From a virus (taxonomy: Duplodnaviria; Heunggongvirae; Uroviricota; Caudoviricetes), in the IMG/VR virus record IMGVR_UViG_2917398303_000004, positions 1 through 40,414 of that record: a DNA stretch of 40,414 nt; one strand, 5' to 3'. The position numbers were made by a program, and so were the translations under genes. Below, one piece after another: positions 31,014 to 40,414 of this stretch; position 1 is the first letter of the stretch, and every line of letters starts with the position of its first letter. The notes under the pieces are model-generated. The model did no database searches. It was not told the DNA's origin and was given only the letters and a program-made list of their open reading frames with translations.

Positions 31014-31934
31014 TTACCCCCTGAACCCTGGTGGAATAGCGCTGTAATCAGTGTTCTTGAAGCTGGGTTTGAAGATGCCATCTTCACGGGCCCATTCCCC
31101 ATTCACTCGTTCTGGTCGGCCAGCTTTGTCCCAGTTATTTGCAGACTTGAGATATCCCGGGAACTTGGACGGCTGGAAAAGCGTCTGTGGTCGCAGGTAA
31201 TCAGACATCTTCAGGTCATCACCCCACTTCGCGTTGCAGTAATCCACCACCAGCGACAGCTCTTCAACGGTGAACCCTTCGCCGATTCGTGCCCGGATGT
31301 TTTGCAGTGACGTGTTTGAAACCTGGTAGCGTGAGTTCGTGACCTGGTTCAGGTGAACCAAAACCTGTTTAGCCTGATCAGTAATCAACACATCACGGTC
31401 TGGTTGCCCCGCAACCGGACAAGAGTCTTTACCTGTAATCTCTGTAGTACTCTCTGTTGTAATCTCTGTAGGATCATCAGTGCATTTTGACCTGATGACA
31501 GCGGTTCGTTTTGACTTGATGGAGCGTGTCACTTTGACCTCTTCCATCGTTTCATTTTGACCTGATGGAACAGCGCATTTTGACCTCTTCGATTCAGTCA
31601 CTTTGACTTCATCTAATAGCTCGCTTTCATAGTTGATTGTGTAGAAGTTGGTCATGTCGCGTTGAGACTTGTTCAGTTGTTCAATTTTGAGCACACCGAG
31701 GGTCTTCAGGCGGGTGAAGGTTCGCTTCAGAGTCGACTCTGACCAGAACGGGAACTGCTCCAACCACTGTTCAGTCGTGTTGTAAATCCAGCGAACACCG
31801 TCACGCTCCATGCCAGACGTTGTTTCTTTCAGCCAGTAGTTAATCTGCTGCAATGCAATCGCCTCATTCAGGCCAATGCTGTACGCAAGGTCAGGATTTA
31901 TCACTATTGGTCGGGATGTCATTAACAGGCTCAT
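31014..31934 (-). CDS. Replication initiator, lambda O-like, with conserved phage C-terminal domain
   Basis: C-terminal LVHLNQVTNSRYQ...EELSLVVDYCNAKW region typical of phage replication proteins; iterons embedded in the gene. Confidence 0.7.
   Translation of the reverse strand: MSLLMTSRPIVINPDLAYSIGLNEAIALQQINYWLKETTSGMERDGVRWIYNTTEQWLEQFPFWSESTLKRTFTRLKTLGVLKIEQLNKSQRDMTNFYTINYESELLDEVKVTESKRSKCAVPSGQNETMEEVKVTRSIKSKRTAVIRSKCTDDPTEITTESTTEITGKDSCPVAGQPDRDVLITDQAKQVLVHLNQVTNSRYQVSNTSLQNIRARIGEGFTVEELSLVVDYCNAKWGDDLKMSDYLRPQTLFQPSKFPGYLKSANNWDKAGRPERVNGEWAREDGIFKPSFKNTDYSAIPPGFRG
31430..31615. repeat. Origin-like iteron array inside the O-like gene: six copies of RYTTTGACYT at about 23-bp spacing plus two GTAATCTCTGTAG repeats
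   Basis: Copies seen starting near 31484, 31508, 31531, 31554, 31577, 31600. Confidence 0.6.
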
Positions 31935-33166: not shown

Positions 33167-33886
33167 ATGACAACTATGCCTTGTGCGCTTAATCTTCTAC
33201 TTATGGTGGAAAATGCTAAATACAAAGACTTTGCCGACAGGCTAAACAAGTCTCTCCAAGAGCAATCAATTGGAGTTAAAGAATTGTCAGAGTTCAGTGG
33301 TGTCTCATATGAGATGGCGCGACGCTATACTCTTGGTACTGCAAAACCACGAGATGAAAAGATGATTCGAATTGCAGACAGGCTTGCCGTATCCCCTGCT
33401 TATCTTGATTACGGGGTACCTGTTAATGGCGGTGATGCGCCCGCTACCGGGACGGTTAGAATTCAGCAATTGGATGTACATGCATCAGCCGGTTCGGGAT
33501 ATATCAATCAACCGTTTCCAACGATTGTCAGCTCGATAGAAATACCAGAAGATAGGATTTTCGAATTGTTTGGCCGGAGAAGCTTAGATGGTATCGTGAT
33601 GATCAACGTAGATGGCGACAGTATGATGCCTACGTTGTGCCCTAAGGATCTGCTCTTCATTGATAGTAAAGTTGAGCAATTCAGTGGAGATGGTGTTTAC
33701 GTGTTCAACTTCGAGGACAGTACCTTTGTAAAAAGACTACAAAAAGTTAAAGGTCGTCGTCTGGCTGTCCTATCAGACAATGAACACTATCCTCCCTTCT
33801 TCATAGAAGAACACGAAATGAATGAGGTTTACATCTTCGGCAAACTTATCAGATGTTTACCTCTGAAAATGATAGAGTTTGGATAA
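33167..33886 (+). CDS. cI: CI-like repressor (HTH plus S24 LexA-type autopeptidase domain)
   Basis: N-terminal HTH, C-terminal GDSM Ser motif and downstream Lys; possibly leaderless start at 33167. Confidence 0.8.
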   Translation: MTTMPCALNLLLMVENAKYKDFADRLNKSLQEQSIGVKELSEFSGVSYEMARRYTLGTAKPRDEKMIRIADRLAVSPAYLDYGVPVNGGDAPATGTVRIQQLDVHASAGSGYINQPFPTIVSSIEIPEDRIFELFGRRSLDGIVMINVDGDSMMPTLCPKDLLFIDSKVEQFSGDGVYVFNFEDSTFVKRLQKVKGRRLAVLSDNEHYPPFFIEEHEMNEVYIFGKLIRCLPLKMIEFG

Positions 33887-34372: not shown

Positions 34373-34496
34373 TGTGTTGTAGCTCAATAGGTAGAGCGCC
34401 TCCTGAAGGAGGAGTTGAGCACTAACCAAGGATCATAACCCAGTTATCTCATGCGGCTGGCCAGACGTTATCCGGGTTCGAGTCCCGGCAGCACAA
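34373..34496 (+). ncRNA. tRNA-like element with canonical acceptor, D-arm and T-arm but an aberrant 74-nt central region
   Basis: Acceptor TGTGTTG/CAGCACA, D-arm GCTC-AATAGGTA-GAGC, T-arm CCGGG-TTCGAGT-CCCGG; no canonical anticodon arm could be folded by eye. Confidence 0.4.
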
Positions 34497-34574: not shown

Positions 34575-34653
34575 GCGGCATTAGCTCAGTTGGATAGAGC
34601 AACGGCCTTCTAAGCCGTGTGGGTCGCAGGTTCGAATCCTGCATGCTGCACCA
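34575..34653 (+). tRNA. tRNA-Arg (anticodon UCU) with encoded CCA
   Basis: Hand-folded cloverleaf: 7-bp acceptor, D-arm, anticodon stem ACGGC/GCCGT with loop CTTCTAA, 7-nt variable loop, T-arm GCAGG-TTCGAAT-CCTGC; resembles argU-type tRNA. Confidence 0.8.
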
Positions 34654-34997
34654 GAATCACGTAGCCAGCGTGGTACCAGGAAGTAAGAAAGCTGTGTGGA
34701 GTCTTGGCGGTACCAGTACCAACCTTTGAAGTCCCTGGTGCCGCCCTTTTTACTCAACTGAAAGCGCGTTCTGTCCCTTGTCATTAAGTGCCAGTTCGTT
34801 AAATCCAAAACCAGCGGAACGCGCTTTCAATTGAGTGGAGAAACTAACCGGCGATTGCAGTCGCCCGTTTCACTAAGTGCCTCTTGATGGGGCATTTACT
34901 GAAACGAAACCAAAACTTTTATTCGCCTTTTGGCGAGGGATTCGTGCAACCAAAATTCAGCGCCGTGCAGGGCGCATATAACACGGAGAAACTAACC

Positions 34998-35480
34998 ATG
35001 ACGACCACACAGAACGTCACTGAGTTACAACCACGTATGACAAGAGAGCAACTGATCGATGCAGCCCGTAAAGCGGCCCCTCTCCTTCCGGTTGCTTACC
35101 GCGGGATCATGACCGAACTGGCTAACCGTCTTGATATCGTCAGCGTGGCGCTTTGCGAGTCAATGGAACAGCGTAAAGCACTGGCCATCGAGAACACCGT
35201 TTTACGAGACGATGTTAATTGTTGGGCCAAAGAGTGCGACCGCATCGTTGAACGTCATACCAAATCGCCGACCAATATGCACATGCTGGAGGCGCAGAGA
35301 GAATTACGCGAGTTAACTCCGGTAACCGATCAGGTTATTCGCGATATCCAAGCCACTGGCGTGGAAAAGTTCGCAAACGTCACTATTGCCATTGGGAAAG
35401 AAGAGCAACAAGAAACCATTGTTTACGCTGGGAATCAGGCTCTCTTATTCGCTAACCAACTCCGTGAAGGTATTGCGTAA
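34998..35480 (+). CDS. Hypothetical early protein
   Basis: Start at MTTTQ with GGAG Shine-Dalgarno; TAATG coupling to downstream ParB-like gene. Confidence 0.5.
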   Translation: MTTTQNVTELQPRMTREQLIDAARKAAPLLPVAYRGIMTELANRLDIVSVALCESMEQRKALAIENTVLRDDVNCWAKECDRIVERHTKSPTNMHMLEAQRELRELTPVTDQVIRDIQATGVEKFANVTIAIGKEEQQETIVYAGNQALLFANQLREGIA

Positions 35481-36520
35481 TGGCAGCTAACTCATTCAAA
35501 CAGATGTCCCGTGACGGAACCATCAAGCGCACCGATACCGGGATGTTTATCAGCCTTGAACATATCCACGTGCGTGAAGGTTTCAACAAGCGTGAAGACG
35601 ACGAACGCACCCGCCAGGCAGATGATGACCTGTTTAACTATCTGATGAACGGCGGCACCGTCCCTCCACTGGAGGTTATCGCACGTGATGAAGGTGGTGT
35701 GTGGGTTGTTGAAGGCCACCGCCGTCGCCGTTGCTATGCGCGTTGTGCTGAAGCTGGTAAGCCAGTAGACCGTATTCATATCATGCCGTTTAACGGTAAC
35801 GATGTGCAGCGTCTGGCTCGCATCATGACCAGCAATAACCAACTCCCCCTTTCCGATATTGAACAGGCTGCTGTTATTCAGGAGCTTCATAACGCTTTCA
35901 ACCAGACCACCAGCGAGATTGCAAAGCTGGTCAATAAATCCGTGGCTACTGTTGAGAAGTTGCTCACTCTGAGTACCGCTAATTATGACGTTCAGCAGGA
36001 AGTTAAATCTGGTGCCGTATCTGTTGATGTTGCTGTTGACCGCGTTCGCGAGTTTGGCGAACAGGCTGGTGAAGTTCTCCAGCACGATAAAGCCGTAGCC
36101 GCCGCCCAGGGGAAAGCAAAGGTTACGCGCAGTCCTATCGCTCCGGAACTCAACATTAAAAGTGCTCGCCGTTTCGTGGAGTTAATGGCCATGGCGACGA
36201 TCAGCGATGAAGGCGTATTCACTTTGCAAGGCACGGCACTGGCTGAAGCTCTGGTAATAATCGACGAACACAAAGCCATTGCTGAAGCTCGCGAAACCTA
36301 TCGCCTATCACAGCCAATTCCTACGACAGAGATTATCGGGAAAGTGCTGTATGTGAAGCTGGACGGTAAGGAAATCGGCTCGGCAATAATTTATCGCGGT
36401 AAGAACGTCACGCTCGACCTGGGTGACAGAAAAATCATCGCCAGCCAGTCAAAAGCAGTGGCCCACTTCGTTAAACAACACAAACTTCAGCAGGTACATA
36501 CCAATGCAAACGATCAATAA
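35480..36520 (+). CDS. ParB-like nuclease-domain / HTH protein
   Basis: VVEGHRRRRCYA (ParB GxRR box) followed by HTH-like segment. Confidence 0.65.
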   Translation: MAANSFKQMSRDGTIKRTDTGMFISLEHIHVREGFNKREDDERTRQADDDLFNYLMNGGTVPPLEVIARDEGGVWVVEGHRRRRCYARCAEAGKPVDRIHIMPFNGNDVQRLARIMTSNNQLPLSDIEQAAVIQELHNAFNQTTSEIAKLVNKSVATVEKLLTLSTANYDVQQEVKSGAVSVDVAVDRVREFGEQAGEVLQHDKAVAAAQGKAKVTRSPIAPELNIKSARRFVELMAMATISDEGVFTLQGTALAEALVIIDEHKAIAEARETYRLSQPIPTTEIIGKVLYVKLDGKEIGSAIIYRGKNVTLDLGDRKIIASQSKAVAHFVKQHKLQQVHTNANDQ

Positions 36521-37034
36521 CCGTATGACAGAAACTCAAATTGCTGATCTCTTCAGCCTGGCGGTTCAGTTGCAGGTTAAAGCTGAAGAATCAGATGATC
36601 GTGATACTGCCATTTTGGCCTACTCAATTCAAAACGCATGCTCAAATTTAACGGAATCCCAGCGCGAATTCCGGGCAGCAGACGCGACTATTCACAATCT
36701 TGAACTGAAACTCACAGACCAGGCAGTACAGCTCGCTAACGCCGAGAGCAAGTGCAGGGATCTGGCGGCGGAGAATGCATACATCCGGAACCGGTACAAA
36801 GAACTGGACCTGTTAATCGGGAAAAACATCCTGGTAATGCAGGCCGCGATTATCGAATGGCAGGCAACTGGCGACGCGAAGAATGGTTTGGCATGGATTT
36901 ATAACACATTGTTTGGCCCTGGCGAATTGCCGGACGAATCTGAGAAAGATGCTCAGGCCTACTTTGACCACAAATATGCACCGATTGACGAAAAGCTTAT
37001 GGCGCTTCACAAGTGGTTTTGGGAACAAAGTTAA
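36504..37034 (+). CDS. Hypothetical coiled-coil early protein
   Basis: ORF track; likely start at ATG 36504. Confidence 0.45.
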   Translation: MQTINNRMTETQIADLFSLAVQLQVKAEESDDRDTAILAYSIQNACSNLTESQREFRAADATIHNLELKLTDQAVQLANAESKCRDLAAENAYIRNRYKELDLLIGKNILVMQAAIIEWQATGDAKNGLAWIYNTLFGPGELPDESEKDAQAYFDHKYAPIDEKLMALHKWFWEQS

Positions 37035-37079
37035 GCCGAACGTGCCGCCGCTGGCATTGGCGTGAAGGGAGAGTGAGAT

Positions 37080-37373
37080 ATGTGGCGAGGAACGAATCGC
37101 GGCGGTATCCAGATGATACTCACTGCCTACGAATACGCCCCAGAAACCAAAAAATCAAAGTCGGTTTACCTGCTACGGCATCACAGCAAAGTTAAGCAGA
37201 CCACGCTTGAGCAAAAACTTGTTGTTGAGAACGATGCGTTTGGTCTGTTTAAACCGATGGTCGAGCTTGCCGACTTTCCAGAAAGATTAAGCGAACGAGA
37301 AGCGATGCTGAAGCTGGCCGACTGGCTACACCGACTTGGCGTGGCGATTGAAGATAACTGGAGCACACCATGA
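37080..37373 (+). CDS. Hypothetical protein
   Basis: 97-aa ORF in early-left operon. Confidence 0.45.
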   Translation: MWRGTNRGGIQMILTAYEYAPETKKSKSVYLLRHHSKVKQTTLEQKLVVENDAFGLFKPMVELADFPERLSEREAMLKLADWLHRLGVAIEDNWSTP

Positions 37374-37924
37374 CAACTAACCACCCGGCGCACAGCCCTG
37401 TATCACTCAATCGCCTGCACCAGATACGCGAAATACTCAGCAAAGCAGCAGCACAAAGTGATGGTGGTAATCTCGGCTACGCAATGGCTGATGCTGTGAA
37501 GGTGATTGATGGAGTTCTGGAGTCGGTAGCCCGTGAGCAAGTACGCCGTGAACATGCAGCATGGTCACTGACTACTTTCGGCGATGTCGGCCCAGTTGGT
37601 CCGCTGAAGCACCTTTCCAAAGAAGCGCTCGAGGCTGCTGCTGAACCAGACGACCTTAGCGAATGGGCTGACATGCAATTCCTGTTATGGGATGCGCAAC
37701 GTCGTGCCGGTATCAGTGACGAGCAGATTACCCAGGCGATGGTAGAAAAGCTCGTAGTAAACAAGCAACGCGAATGGCCTGAGCCGAAAGACGGAGAACC
37801 GCGACTGCATATCAAAGAGAAATCAGAACTGATGCTTCCGGAAATTGAATGCGATATCTGCGGGCATGTATCTACTGACTCAGAGGGGCGGCACTACTGC
37901 TGCGAGGATAATAGTAATGATTGA
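37370..37924 (+). CDS. Hypothetical early protein
   Basis: 184-aa ORF, overlapping start/stop with neighbours. Confidence 0.45.
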   Translation: MTTNHPAHSPVSLNRLHQIREILSKAAAQSDGGNLGYAMADAVKVIDGVLESVAREQVRREHAAWSLTTFGDVGPVGPLKHLSKEALEAAAEPDDLSEWADMQFLLWDAQRRAGISDEQITQAMVEKLVVNKQREWPEPKDGEPRLHIKEKSELMLPEIECDICGHVSTDSEGRHYCCEDNSND

Positions 37925-38570
37925 TAAATACCGTTTGGAGGATATGCGGCGCGAAAGCGGTGAAAAGGGAGAGCTTGCCCGGTGGGTTATTCAACTCCAA
38001 GCTGACCTTGATAGAGAAATAAGAAAGAGCGCTAGCGAAAGGGCTATGCTATCGCGCCTGGCAGTGATAATGCACGGTTCTGAAACAGATTTAAACCTGC
38101 TAACGGTAACCGCTAAATCGCTGGTTGAGCGCTGCAAAACCTTATCGCATGAGCGTGACGTACTGCCGGCCCAGTCATCTGACGAAGTGAACGCCGCCGC
38201 ATGGAAACTGCATGACATGCTGACTGAACACGGCCCTTTAAATGGGCGTCAGTTCAACAATCTGAAAGGCTGTTTCTACGAGGCATTAAAGGTTGCTATG
38301 AGCAACTCTCCGATAACTCCTGATGGTTACGTGATGGTCCCGAAGAAACTAACCGCTGAGAACGGCGCAAAGAGTGTGCTGTCCGGTGAGTTTTCAGAAA
38401 CGAAATTTATAAACTGCCCAGAGTGTTTTGGTGATGATGAATGCGAAACATGCGACGGAAGCGGAAGAATTGAAATCACCGTTCCTGTCACATGGACGAC
38501 CATCAAAGCTATTTGGGCTAAAGGTGTCGAGCATTTCGCAGCAGCACCTCAGCAGGAGGTGAAGCCGTGA
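37917..38570 (+). CDS. Hypothetical protein with C-terminal CxxC...CxxCxGxG zinc-finger-like motif
   Basis: CPECFGDDECETCDGSG motif; start at MIDKYRLEDM. Confidence 0.45.
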   Translation: MIDKYRLEDMRRESGEKGELARWVIQLQADLDREIRKSASERAMLSRLAVIMHGSETDLNLLTVTAKSLVERCKTLSHERDVLPAQSSDEVNAAAWKLHDMLTEHGPLNGRQFNNLKGCFYEALKVAMSNSPITPDGYVMVPKKLTAENGAKSVLSGEFSETKFINCPECFGDDECETCDGSGRIEITVPVTWTTIKAIWAKGVEHFAAAPQQEVKP

Positions 38571-38794
38571 CTAAATCAGATCTCCTCCAGAAGGTAGCGG
38601 CACTTGCTACAGAGTTTCACACACTGGCCTGCGAGCTGGATATTGGCGATGAACGCACTGAGATGTTTGAGATATACAACGTGCTGAGGAGTCTTGGGCG
38701 CAAAGGATATGCAAGCCAGATAAGCAAAGCTACCAACCCGCTGTTATGGGCGGTTGACGATAACGACGATGATTGGGATGAGGATGATGAGTGA
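38567..38794 (+). CDS. Hypothetical small acidic protein
   Basis: 75-aa ORF with poly-Asp/Glu C-terminus. Confidence 0.4.
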   Translation: MTKSDLLQKVAALATEFHTLACELDIGDERTEMFEIYNVLRSLGRKGYASQISKATNPLLWAVDDNDDDWDEDDE

Positions 38795-38858
38795 TGGCTA
38801 ACCCATACGACGTCGTGATGTTCGTGCTTCTAACCTGGGGCGTAATCGATCAAGAGAG

Positions 38859-39143
38859 GTGCGTATGGTAAGCAAACTCAAACAGCGGCGTACGCGCCGC
38901 CTAAAAGCAGATGTGGCTTGGTGGAAATCTGAAGCTGAGTACTGTAAGGCGCGAGTGTTCGAACAGGCAAACGAAATTGCTGAACTAAGAAGCATGGTGA
39001 TTCGTGTACCAATGCCGGTAATGGTGCCAGTAGAGATACTTCGTCAGCTAAATGGGAAGAGTTCGAAAGAAAGTCCATTATGTCGCAATTGCAACGATGG
39101 AACCCGTCACGGTTGTTCATCGTGTGCTTACAGAATGAAGTAA
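38859..39143 (+). CDS. Hypothetical Cys-rich protein
   Basis: 94-aa ORF with C-terminal CxxC...CxxC cluster. Confidence 0.4.
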   Translation: MRMVSKLKQRRTRRLKADVAWWKSEAEYCKARVFEQANEIAELRSMVIRVPMPVMVPVEILRQLNGKSSKESPLCRNCNDGTRHGCSSCAYRMK

Positions 39144-39176
39144 CCGGGTGCAGCCGGTTTAAGTGGAGAACTATCT

Positions 39177-39404
39177 ATGAGCGGACAAATCCAACGTTTT
39201 CTTACTCCAGATGACCTCTATCAATTAACTGGTTATCGTCGTCCTTCCCTGCAGTGTAAAGCTCTGAGGGATAGTGGAGTATTTTTTATCCCACGCAAGG
39301 ACGGCAGACCAGGAACAACATGGGATCATGTATCAAACCCGGTTGGCCTTAAGTTGATAGTGAGCAATCCAGAGGAAGAAGAACCAAACTTTAAGGATAT
39401 GTAA
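39177..39404 (+). CDS. xis: Excisionase-like protein
   Basis: 75-aa basic ORF immediately upstream of and overlapping the integrase start. Confidence 0.55.
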   Translation: MSGQIQRFLTPDDLYQLTGYRRPSLQCKALRDSGVFFIPRKDGRPGTTWDHVSNPVGLKLIVSNPEEEEPNFKDM

Positions 39405-40414
39405 TGTCTAGAGCTCGCAAAAACCCCGATGATAACTGGATGCCTCCCCGCGTTCGCCGGGGAAAATCTGCTTATGAGTTTCGCACAACAGATGGTCGTA
39501 CCGTCAGGTTGTGCAATCCTGATCTAACAAAATCGCAGGTGTGGGCAGCTTACGAAAACTTCATAAACGATTTAAAGGTTGGGACGAACTTCAACGCACT
39601 TTGTGAAGAGTTCTTTAATTCCGGCGATTTCCACGAATTAGCAACTGAAACACGTAAAGACTACAGAAAATACGGTTCAAAGGTAAATGTTGTCTTCGGG
39701 AAAATGAAGCCGGATAACATCAAGCCCGAGCACATCAGAAAATACATGGATAAACGAGGTGTTAAGAGCAGAGTTCAGGCAAATCGCGAGAAAGCATTTA
39801 TGTCCAGGGTGTTTCGGTGGGCATACGAAAGAGGAAAGGTGAAGATGAATCCTTGCCAGGGGGTTAAGCAATTTAAAGAGCAGGCTCGTACCCGTTATAT
39901 TAGCGATAGGGAATATGATGCACTTTATAGCGTTGCTTCTGTTCCCGTAAAAGTTGCAATGGAATTGGCATATCTATGTTGCGCCCGCCAGGGAGACATT
40001 CTTGACCTCAAAAAGAGTCAAATATTGAGCGAAGGAATTTTAATTCAGCAGAGTAAAACCGCAGTTAGCCAGATCAAGGCCTGGACAAAACGTCTGGAGG
40101 ATGCCGTTAATCTTGCTGACAGCATTCCTCTCAACAGCGGGATGGTGAGTATTTTTGTCATCCACCAGCCATCAGGTCTGCGATATACACGCGATGCTTT
40201 TAATGCGCAGTGGATGAAGACTAAAAAACTTGCTGCAGAAAAATATCCAGACCTCGATTTCCAGTTCACTTTTCATGATCTAAAAGCCAAAGGAATTTCT
40301 GATCTTGAAGGTACGCTGAGTGAGAAGCAGGAAATTTCAGGTCATAAAAACGCCTCGCAAACAGCGAGATATAATCGAAGAATTTCAGTTGTTCCGGTCG
40401 TCGGGGGGCAGTGA
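39404..40414 (+). CDS. int: Tyrosine recombinase / phage integrase
   Basis: C-terminal FHDLKAKG...SGHKNASQTARY matches the H-x-x-R ... H ... Y catalytic region of lambda-family integrases; stop at 40412-40414. Confidence 0.85.
   Translation: MSRARKNPDDNWMPPRVRRGKSAYEFRTTDGRTVRLCNPDLTKSQVWAAYENFINDLKVGTNFNALCEEFFNSGDFHELATETRKDYRKYGSKVNVVFGKMKPDNIKPEHIRKYMDKRGVKSRVQANREKAFMSRVFRWAYERGKVKMNPCQGVKQFKEQARTRYISDREYDALYSVASVPVKVAMELAYLCCARQGDILDLKKSQILSEGILIQQSKTAVSQIKAWTKRLEDAVNLADSIPLNSGMVSIFVIHQPSGLRYTRDAFNAQWMKTKKLAAEKYPDLDFQFTFHDLKAKGISDLEGTLSEKQEISGHKNASQTARYNRRISVVPVVGGQ

Follow-up and report, generated by a model that had tools for sequence, protein, structure and literature searches.

Orphan ParB-CTPase-fold proteins of prophages have been surveyed in a previous study (PMC12704722), and distant ParB-like genes with unassigned function were reported for lambdoid phages, at the cI- or int-proximal ends of early-left operons and sometimes in early-right operons (PMC12315714). 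These proteins combine the ParB fold with a helix-turn-helix (HTH), lack both ParA and the ParA-binding motif, and have a divergent Box III. Here, we describe a protein of the same kind, ORF-B (ORF, open reading frame), together with the gene that it overlaps, ORF-A, in a 40,414-nucleotide (nt) stretch of viral DNA (positions 1–40,414 of IMG/VR virus record IMGVR_UViG_2917398303_000004), which is referred to below as the window. The window is a lambdoid prophage, and its closest sequences (98% identity) are from Citrobacter freundii/portucalensis. ORF-B does not differ in kind from other orphan ParBs; it belongs to a specific Enterobacterales family, phrog_1033, another member of which, gp034, comes from the cultured lambdoid phage mEp390, and is a new, uncharacterised example of the orphan ParBs already noted in lambdoid phages. 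Orphan ParB-fold proteins are widespread nucleoside triphosphate (NTP) switches on mobile elements, and almost none of those from integrating phages has a known role.

ParB-like proteins of other elements provide further comparisons. KorB of RK2 shares with ORF-B a ParB-like N-terminal domain (NTD) and HTH, and its structures (8qa8/8qa9) matched the ORF-B model at E ~1e-7. In transcription control, KorB itself plays no segregation role, and it has a small partner, KorA. Unlike ORF-B, it contains a canonical CTPase pocket, and its OB operators are known. KorA represses by means of an HTH; ORF-A, by contrast, lacks an HTH, is of the coiled-coil type and shows no consistent linkage to the ParB-like gene. 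Another example is HerB/YfjB from the leading regions of conjugative plasmids, an orphan ParB-like protein that binds cytidine triphosphate (CTP), contains an HTH and is expressed earliest after entry (PMC13370423). HerB differs from ORF-B in a distinct dimerisation module and in its location on plasmids, and a tblastn search of plasmids with ORF-B returned no HerB-type protein among the best matches. BisD of ICEclc is a ParB-like CTP clamp on an integrated element, where it activates genes over a long distance with an adjacent partner (PMC12409273); both the element type and the partner differ from those of ORF-B, for which BisD, like HerB, serves as a functional precedent. Canonical ParB/Spo0J and Noc have the fold, the HTH, Box I and Box II in common with ORF-B, but identity is ~20%, and ORF-B has lost Box III, contains no ParA motif, is accompanied by canonical parS at chance level only and carries a C-terminal domain of another, variable type.

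The two genes and their junction are located as follows.

34998–35480, plus strand: ORF-A, 160 amino acids (aa), an all-helical (coiled-coil-like) mosaic protein
35480–36520, plus strand: ORF-B, 346 aa, an orphan ParB-like protein
35478–35482, plus strand: TAATG stop/start overlap, in which the ORF-A TAA (35478–35480) shares one base with the ORF-B ATG (35480–35482)

An earlier note on this DNA had proposed a 160-aa and a 346-aa gene overlapping in TAATG and had placed the pair in the early-left operon. Both genes were confirmed on the plus strand at these coordinates, and the early-left placement fits the gene order (cI-like repressor, ORF-A, ORF-B, xis-like gene, int), which is the same in mEp390, where gp035 and gp034 are the counterparts of ORF-A and ORF-B. 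The sequence GGAGAA (34985–34990) precedes the ORF-A ATG, and the Shine-Dalgarno sequence of ORF-B, GAAGG (35466–35470), lies inside ORF-A, nine bases 5' of the ORF-B ATG. ORF-A is a real gene: over its first 110 codons, variation among 103 distinct homologous sequences falls on the third positions, and positions 1 and 2 are kept. A longer in-frame ORF that starts with TTG at 34884 was also considered for ORF-A and rejected: this stretch is an RNA leader, in which substitutions keep base pairs and not codons.

Sequence comparison and structure prediction identify ORF-B as a divergent orphan ParB with a predicted N-terminal ParB-CTPase-type fold and a ParB HTH. Pfam PF17762 (HTH_ParB) matched residues 124–182 (E 1.4e-6; score 28.8 bits, gathering cut-off 22.6), TIGR00180 covered residues 42–179 with 1.5e-10 but scored below its curated cut-off, and phrog_1033 ('ParB-like partition protein') matched with 7.6e-82. 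Searches against PDB sequences with phmmer/hmmsearch detected the ParB proteins of H. pylori, Caulobacter and Myxococcus. The AlphaFold2 (AF2) model had a predicted local distance difference test score (pLDDT) of 76.7 and was good over residues 1–210 and 282–344. Its best Foldseek match was the CTP-bound ParB of M. xanthus (7bnk, E 1e-8), and Caulobacter ParB, KorB, Noc and Spo0J were also found (E ~1e-8 to 1e-6); these matches (7bnk, 6t1f, 8qa8, 7nfu) span ~200 residues, comprising the N-terminal domain and the HTH. The motifs of ORF-B, read from HMMER alignments with 4umk, 6t1f and 7bnk and from a family alignment of 23 homologues using the Box definitions of PMC12704722, and its other domains are listed below.

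35651–35668, plus strand: equivalent of the Box I (C-motif) loop, G58-G59-T-V61-P62-P63, with G58, G59, V61, P62 and P63 invariant in the family alignment
35714–35731, plus strand: equivalent of the Box II (P-motif) GxxR, G79-H80-R81-R82-R83-R84, aligned to GERRxRA of canonical ParB
35828–35842, plus strand: Box III position, where canonical ENLQR (E-N-x-Q-R) is replaced by T117-S118-N119-N120-Q121
35849–36025, plus strand: ParB-type HTH DNA-binding domain, residues 124–182 (PF17762)
36323–36511, plus strand: accessory C-terminal beta-rich domain and helix, residues 282–344 (AF2 pLDDT ~85)

In Box I, the helix DDLFNYLMN is followed by GGTVPP, which aligned to the ...GLLQP loop of the three structures. 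The canonical E of Box II is replaced by H, and G79, H80, R81 and R82 are invariant in all 23 homologues, as are T117, S118 and Q121 at the Box III position. The family includes ~346-aa and ~275-aa forms, of which only the former contain the C-terminal beta domain (residues 282–344, no Pfam match), as well as forms with other C-termini (P0108, P0113). Thus, the GxRR box (GHRRRR) and the HTH described in the earlier note were both recovered. Its label of a 'ParB-like nuclease-domain' protein holds for the ParB fold, which is seen with TIGR00180 (below cut-off), PDB sequences and Foldseek; 'nuclease-domain' is only a historical name, and the best matches are CTP clamps.

We tentatively interpret ORF-B, with a little less than even confidence, as an early-expressed dimeric NTP-gated (most likely CTP) DNA clamp or site-specific regulator, and ORF-A as separate from it. 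ORF-B would be translated from the early-left transcript as soon as infection or induction has taken place; its HTH would recognise a specific site or sites on phage or host DNA, and its N-terminal ParB-CTPase fold would then engage once NTP is bound. With a degenerate Box III, hydrolysis would probably proceed slowly or not at all, and the bound state would be long-lived. The output may be regulatory or organisational, through transcription control or DNA marking as in KorB, BisD, VirB, Noc and HerB, and would involve neither plasmid partition nor DNA cleavage. For ORF-B we infer all of these properties, i.e., NTP binding, dimerisation, clamp behaviour, target DNA and regulatory output. Box III is often divergent or lost in orphan ParBs, which are capable of binding CTP, adenosine triphosphate (ATP) or guanosine triphosphate (GTP) (PMC12704722), and the repressor-proximal early-left position of the ParB-like gene is common to mEp390 and Pseudomonas phage MD8. 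A more specific version, in which ORF-B is the phage counterpart of HerB/BisD, i.e., an early-expressed NTP clamp impaired in hydrolysis that loads at specific host/phage sites and reprograms transcription in the lysis-lysogeny window, and the conserved N-terminal module of ORF-A is an accessory peculiar to this clade through which exchangeable C-terminal modules reach ORF-B, appears rather unlikely. A naturally degenerate Box III would inform how ParB clamps work without hydrolysis; the ORF-B family is abundant in enterobacterial prophages (~450 IMG/VR contigs), and mEp390 gp034, from a cultured E. coli phage, is a member directly usable for genetics.

Several observations weigh against the clamp interpretation. 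PF02195, the Pfam ParB N-terminal domain, missed the N-terminal 127 aa of ORF-B even at E ≤ 1; residues 218–280, comprising the linker and the putative dimerisation helices, were modelled by AF2 with low confidence; the Mg2+-binding/catalytic E/N of Box III are not conserved; and NTP specificity is not predictable from sequence (PMC12704722). With respect to a binding site, canonical parS occurred in the window at chance level with no excess, ORF-B contained no palindromic stretch with synonymous-site conservation, and the inverted repeat of the leader was also present in loci that have no ParB-like gene; these searches yielded no candidate ORF-B site, and a non-canonical one may lie elsewhere. 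In addition, the tight adjacency with ORF-A in ~93% of close relatives makes a clade-specific interaction possible.

Databases label ORF-B 'chromosome partitioning protein ParB', and a 39.6-kb record catalogued as a plasmid contains an 85%-identical copy (H46), both of which would suit a routine partition protein of a plasmid-like or pseudolysogenic phage state. This explanation is largely refuted and we regard it as highly improbable, because ParA and the ParA-binding motif are missing, canonical parS is not enriched in the window and the phage integrates. The MD8 paper remarked on the ParB-like homologue as puzzling, and its authors saw no homologues in plasmid-prophages. As stated in the earlier note, there is no ParA partner: the deviant Walker A motif KGGxGK[ST] was found in none of the six frames of the 40-kb window, no ParA-type Pfam match was detected among the neighbouring early-left/early-right genes scanned, and the LG[KR]GL ParA-binding motif is missing from ORF-B and all 23 aligned homologues. 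That note had named a partition protein with nearby parS and parA as the case that would overturn its view; the window holds no ParA, and its canonical parS matches are those expected by chance. An integrase and a DUF4224 xis-like gene are present, and relatives are chromosomally integrated in E. coli at tRNA genes or icd. The database name is misleading. The ParB/Srx superfamily also has enzymes, Osa among them, and ORF-B might instead be a ParB/Srx-fold nuclease or other early DNA enzyme, possibly one that degrades host DNA, processes recombination intermediates or acts as an Osa-like ATPase/DNase. Sulfiredoxin (Srx) and SbnI did appear as weak Foldseek matches, and lambdoid DNA-transaction genes sit in the early-left operon, which here (34998–39143, plus strand) has no recognisable recombination (Rec) module (exo/bet, erf, recET). 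However, clamps with NTD and HTH matched at ~1e-8 and SbnI/Srx only at 0.06–0.2, no nuclease motif or family was detected in ORF-B, and ParB-like genes, which also occur in early-right operons and beside full Rec modules, were concluded not to be Rec-module genes (PMC12315714). An enzymatic role is thus quite unlikely, and the nuclease is the least supported of the options in the earlier note, the best structural matches being CTP-dependent clamps with an HTH. Anti-defence or inter-element competition, in which ORF-B would coat or mark phage DNA against restriction or structural maintenance of chromosomes (SMC)-type defences or silence a competitor, fits early expression beside the immunity region, the modular and variable C-termini of the family, and the DNA methyltransferases and DndB-like gene among the neighbours of relatives; such roles were also speculated upon for prophage ParB-fold proteins (PMC12704722). 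Neither ORF-A nor ORF-B matched PADLOC, whose models cover defence and not anti-defence, and the ParB-like gene has no consistent neighbour. We consider this role unlikely, but it is compatible with the clamp mechanism and not an alternative to it.

The remaining explanation concerns the pair. The coupling had suggested a two-component function to the earlier note, i.e., ORF-A would be a dedicated partner of ORF-B, as in KorA-KorB, BisC-BisD or ParA-ParB, and the overlap would ensure stoichiometric co-expression. Among the best 80 IMG/VR loci per scan, the two genes abut in 75/80 of those seeded with ORF-A and in at least 73/80 of those seeded with ParB. The two families have similar numbers of IMG/VR contigs (462 vs 452), divergence in Phytobacter and Kosakonia affects the two genes alike, and ParB-like clamps with small partners are known (8qa9, KorB-KorA; PMC12409273). 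However, these sets of close relatives are not phylogenetically independent, and adjacency within them may be plain synteny because the loci are closely related. Unrelated upstream genes, such as those for DnaC-like proteins, an exonuclease, a methyltransferase and small membrane proteins, were present at no fewer than 19 of 35 species-level ParB-like loci. In this one-genome-per-species scan, an ORF-A-family gene was upstream only in Citrobacter, Enterobacter, Silvania, Phytobacter and Kosakonia (as it also was in two loci from the complete E. coli genomes), with weak links also in Dryocola and Raoultella; the upstream gene was unrelated in Pantoea and Erwinia (DnaC-like), Edwardsiella, Serratia, Sodalis, Superficieibacter and Pandoraea, and likewise in Pseudomonas phage MD8. 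From the side of ORF-A, 106 of the 109 IMG/VR loci with distant module-1 relatives had no ParB-like gene within 4 kb, and in one locus (L058) a 72%-identical ORF-A homologue precedes a 77-aa gene and then one for a Dam-like methylase, in place of the ParB-like gene. The C-terminal type and length class of ORF-A did not co-vary with the long or short ParB form, and ORF-A modules occur alone or fused to other early modules.

The junction itself argues in the same direction. Of 164 homologous pairs, 74 overlap by 1 nt, 78 by 4 nt and 7 by 11 nt, and in the other 5 an insertion of 257–1966 nt separated the two homologues. The ribosome-binding site of the ParB-like gene is also read through by unrelated ORFs upstream of it, which terminate in an identical ...TSNG(R), and the overlap therefore belongs to the ParB-like cassette irrespective of the gene in front; other junctions of the early-left operon of the window also overlap at start and stop. 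Outside one enterobacterial clade (Citrobacter, Enterobacter, Escherichia, Phytobacter and Kosakonia) the pair is not kept together, an outcome that the earlier note had named as refuting its view, and the two-component function proposed earlier appears improbable. The ORF-A/ORF-B overlap is best read as compact operon packing in one phage clade, not an obligate partnership, and should not be taken as a two-gene system. Some neighbours of the ParB-like gene in other genomes deserve mention. In Phytobacter ursingii (L017, 4785–5921), it is followed by a gene for a DGQHR/DndB-like protein, itself of ParB fold, and C5 or Dam-like DNA methyltransferases are found beside it in three further loci (L027, L029, L033).

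We read ORF-A as an early coiled-coil protein in its own right, shuffled by recombination; its gene comes first after a structured RNA leader. The protein has the following parts.

Residues about 13–70: module 1
Residues about 60–110: module 2, around CWAKECDRIVERHTK
Between module 2 and the C-terminus: linker TPxTD...GVExFA (TPATD...GVExFA)
Residues 111–160 (35328–35477, plus strand): hypervariable C-terminus

The claim that ORF-A has no recognisable family was borne out: no family was found in Pfam, NCBIfam or PADLOC, PHROG matches were limited to PHROGs of unknown function, and a profile search against PDB sequences gave coiled-coil noise only. Long helices make up the AF2 model (pLDDT 81.5), and in a structure search no PDB entry matched it with E below 1.7. 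When 1.84 billion representative proteins were searched with a profile, 149 clusters matched, all of small proteins, in which the modules were also found separately or fused to other early-gene modules. For example, module 2 is fused in other phages to the N-terminal module of the gene at 36525–37034 (P0298). ORF-A showed no similarity to the other coiled-coil early gene of the window. Lambda Ea22/'ead' is, like ORF-A, a small helical early-left protein made of shuffled modules, but homology was not detectable between the two; an assignment of ORF-A as Ea22-like was rejected (hhalign probability 0.3%, no ead/Ea22 match in NCBIfam).

The leader in front of ORF-A (~125 nt) contains four hairpins.

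34850–34975, plus strand: four-hairpin RNA leader
34850–34865, plus strand: hairpin HP1
34866–34906, plus strand: hairpin HP2
About 34921–34934, plus strand: hairpin HP3
34960–34975, plus strand: hairpin HP4, with a GUGCAG loop

The RNA fold has a z-score of -4.3. In an alignment of 24 sequences, 97.1% of cells were paired and 8 pairs had changed on both sides; this level of pairing was reached by none of 500 shuffles, and slid controls were 37–47% paired. The leader accompanies ORF-A-like first genes, also in loci without a ParB-like gene, and its inverted repeat is for that reason not a ParB-specific parS. Two candidates for parS were rejected at this locus: the 16-nt inverted repeat at 34866–34906 (GTTTCAC-like ends), which is an RNA stem with compensatory changes, and the palindrome at 35304–35325 within ORF-A, whose synonymous sites are not conserved. 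No Rfam family matched the leader, and parts of it were observed in phages Ayreon (annotated as 'terminator'), 2H10, ST64B and phiNP. The leader could be a put/nut-like or a translational/processing element. Antitermination of the N/nut type with ORF-A as the basic protein is not supported: the hairpins are present and covary, but ORF-A is about charge-neutral and helical and has no arginine-rich motif.

HP1 and HP4 are copies of a repeated cassette that consists of a 5-bp GC-rich stem and a (G/U)UGCAG loop.

34850–34865, plus strand: cassette copy in the window
34960–34975, plus strand: cassette copy in the window
39143–39158, plus strand: cassette copy in the window
29005–28990, minus strand: cassette copy in the window
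mEp390, 27082 and 22935, minus strand: cassette copies

Five such hairpins were found against 0.5 expected, and every copy is oriented in the sense of early transcription. The loop is constant, and the stems differ from copy to copy and covary from phage to phage. Three of the four window cassettes and both mEp390 cassettes have a (GU)GGAGA-type Shine-Dalgarno sequence and a start codon 3–9 nt downstream; copies followed in this way precede ORF-A, the xis-like gene and a Rha/Ant-like gene. At 34850, a Shine-Dalgarno-like motif lies upstream of the hairpin instead.

In the window, the minus strand encodes the structural genes and the early-right operon, and the plus strand carries, in order, the repressor, a tRNA pair, ORF-A, ORF-B, several small genes, the DUF4224 xis-like gene and the integrase. 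The other plus-strand genes are listed below.

33167–33886, plus strand: cI-like S24/HTH repressor
36525–37034, plus strand: gene after ORF-B, 169 aa, with a coiled-coil N-terminus (PHROGs 18739 and 250)
37370–37924, plus strand: dATP/dGTP pyrophosphohydrolase, early-left operon
Ending at 38570, plus strand: protein with a CxxC zinc-ribbon-like C-terminus, early-left operon
39404–40414, plus strand: int (integrase), preceded by the DUF4224 xis-like gene

This gene order recurs in an E. coli TST3 prophage adjoining tRNA genes and in an e14-like element at icd. Matches covering at least 80% of the region were present in 5 of 5,426 complete E. coli genomes, at 94–96% identity. A megablast search of the phage collection with the region gave no matches; mEp390 surfaced at the protein level.

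The tRNA pair comprises a normal tRNA-Arg(TCT) (34575–34653) and a tRNA-like element (34373–34496, plus strand). The latter matched the Rfam tRNA model with 45.9 bits, has a 56-nt variable-region insertion and an aberrant anticodon arm, and received no tRNA call from ARAGORN; in E. coli TST3, its slot holds a BRCT-domain gene on the opposite strand. The gene at 36525–37034 matched the PADLOC model 'DpdH' (6.9e-37), a label that may reflect a prophage gene captured in the model. A near-perfect 16-bp palindrome, TGGTTCAGGTGAACCA (31345–31360), was observed within a replication-initiator-like gene (31014–31934, minus strand). It has 3 mismatches to parS, which is chance level, and may be an origin element.

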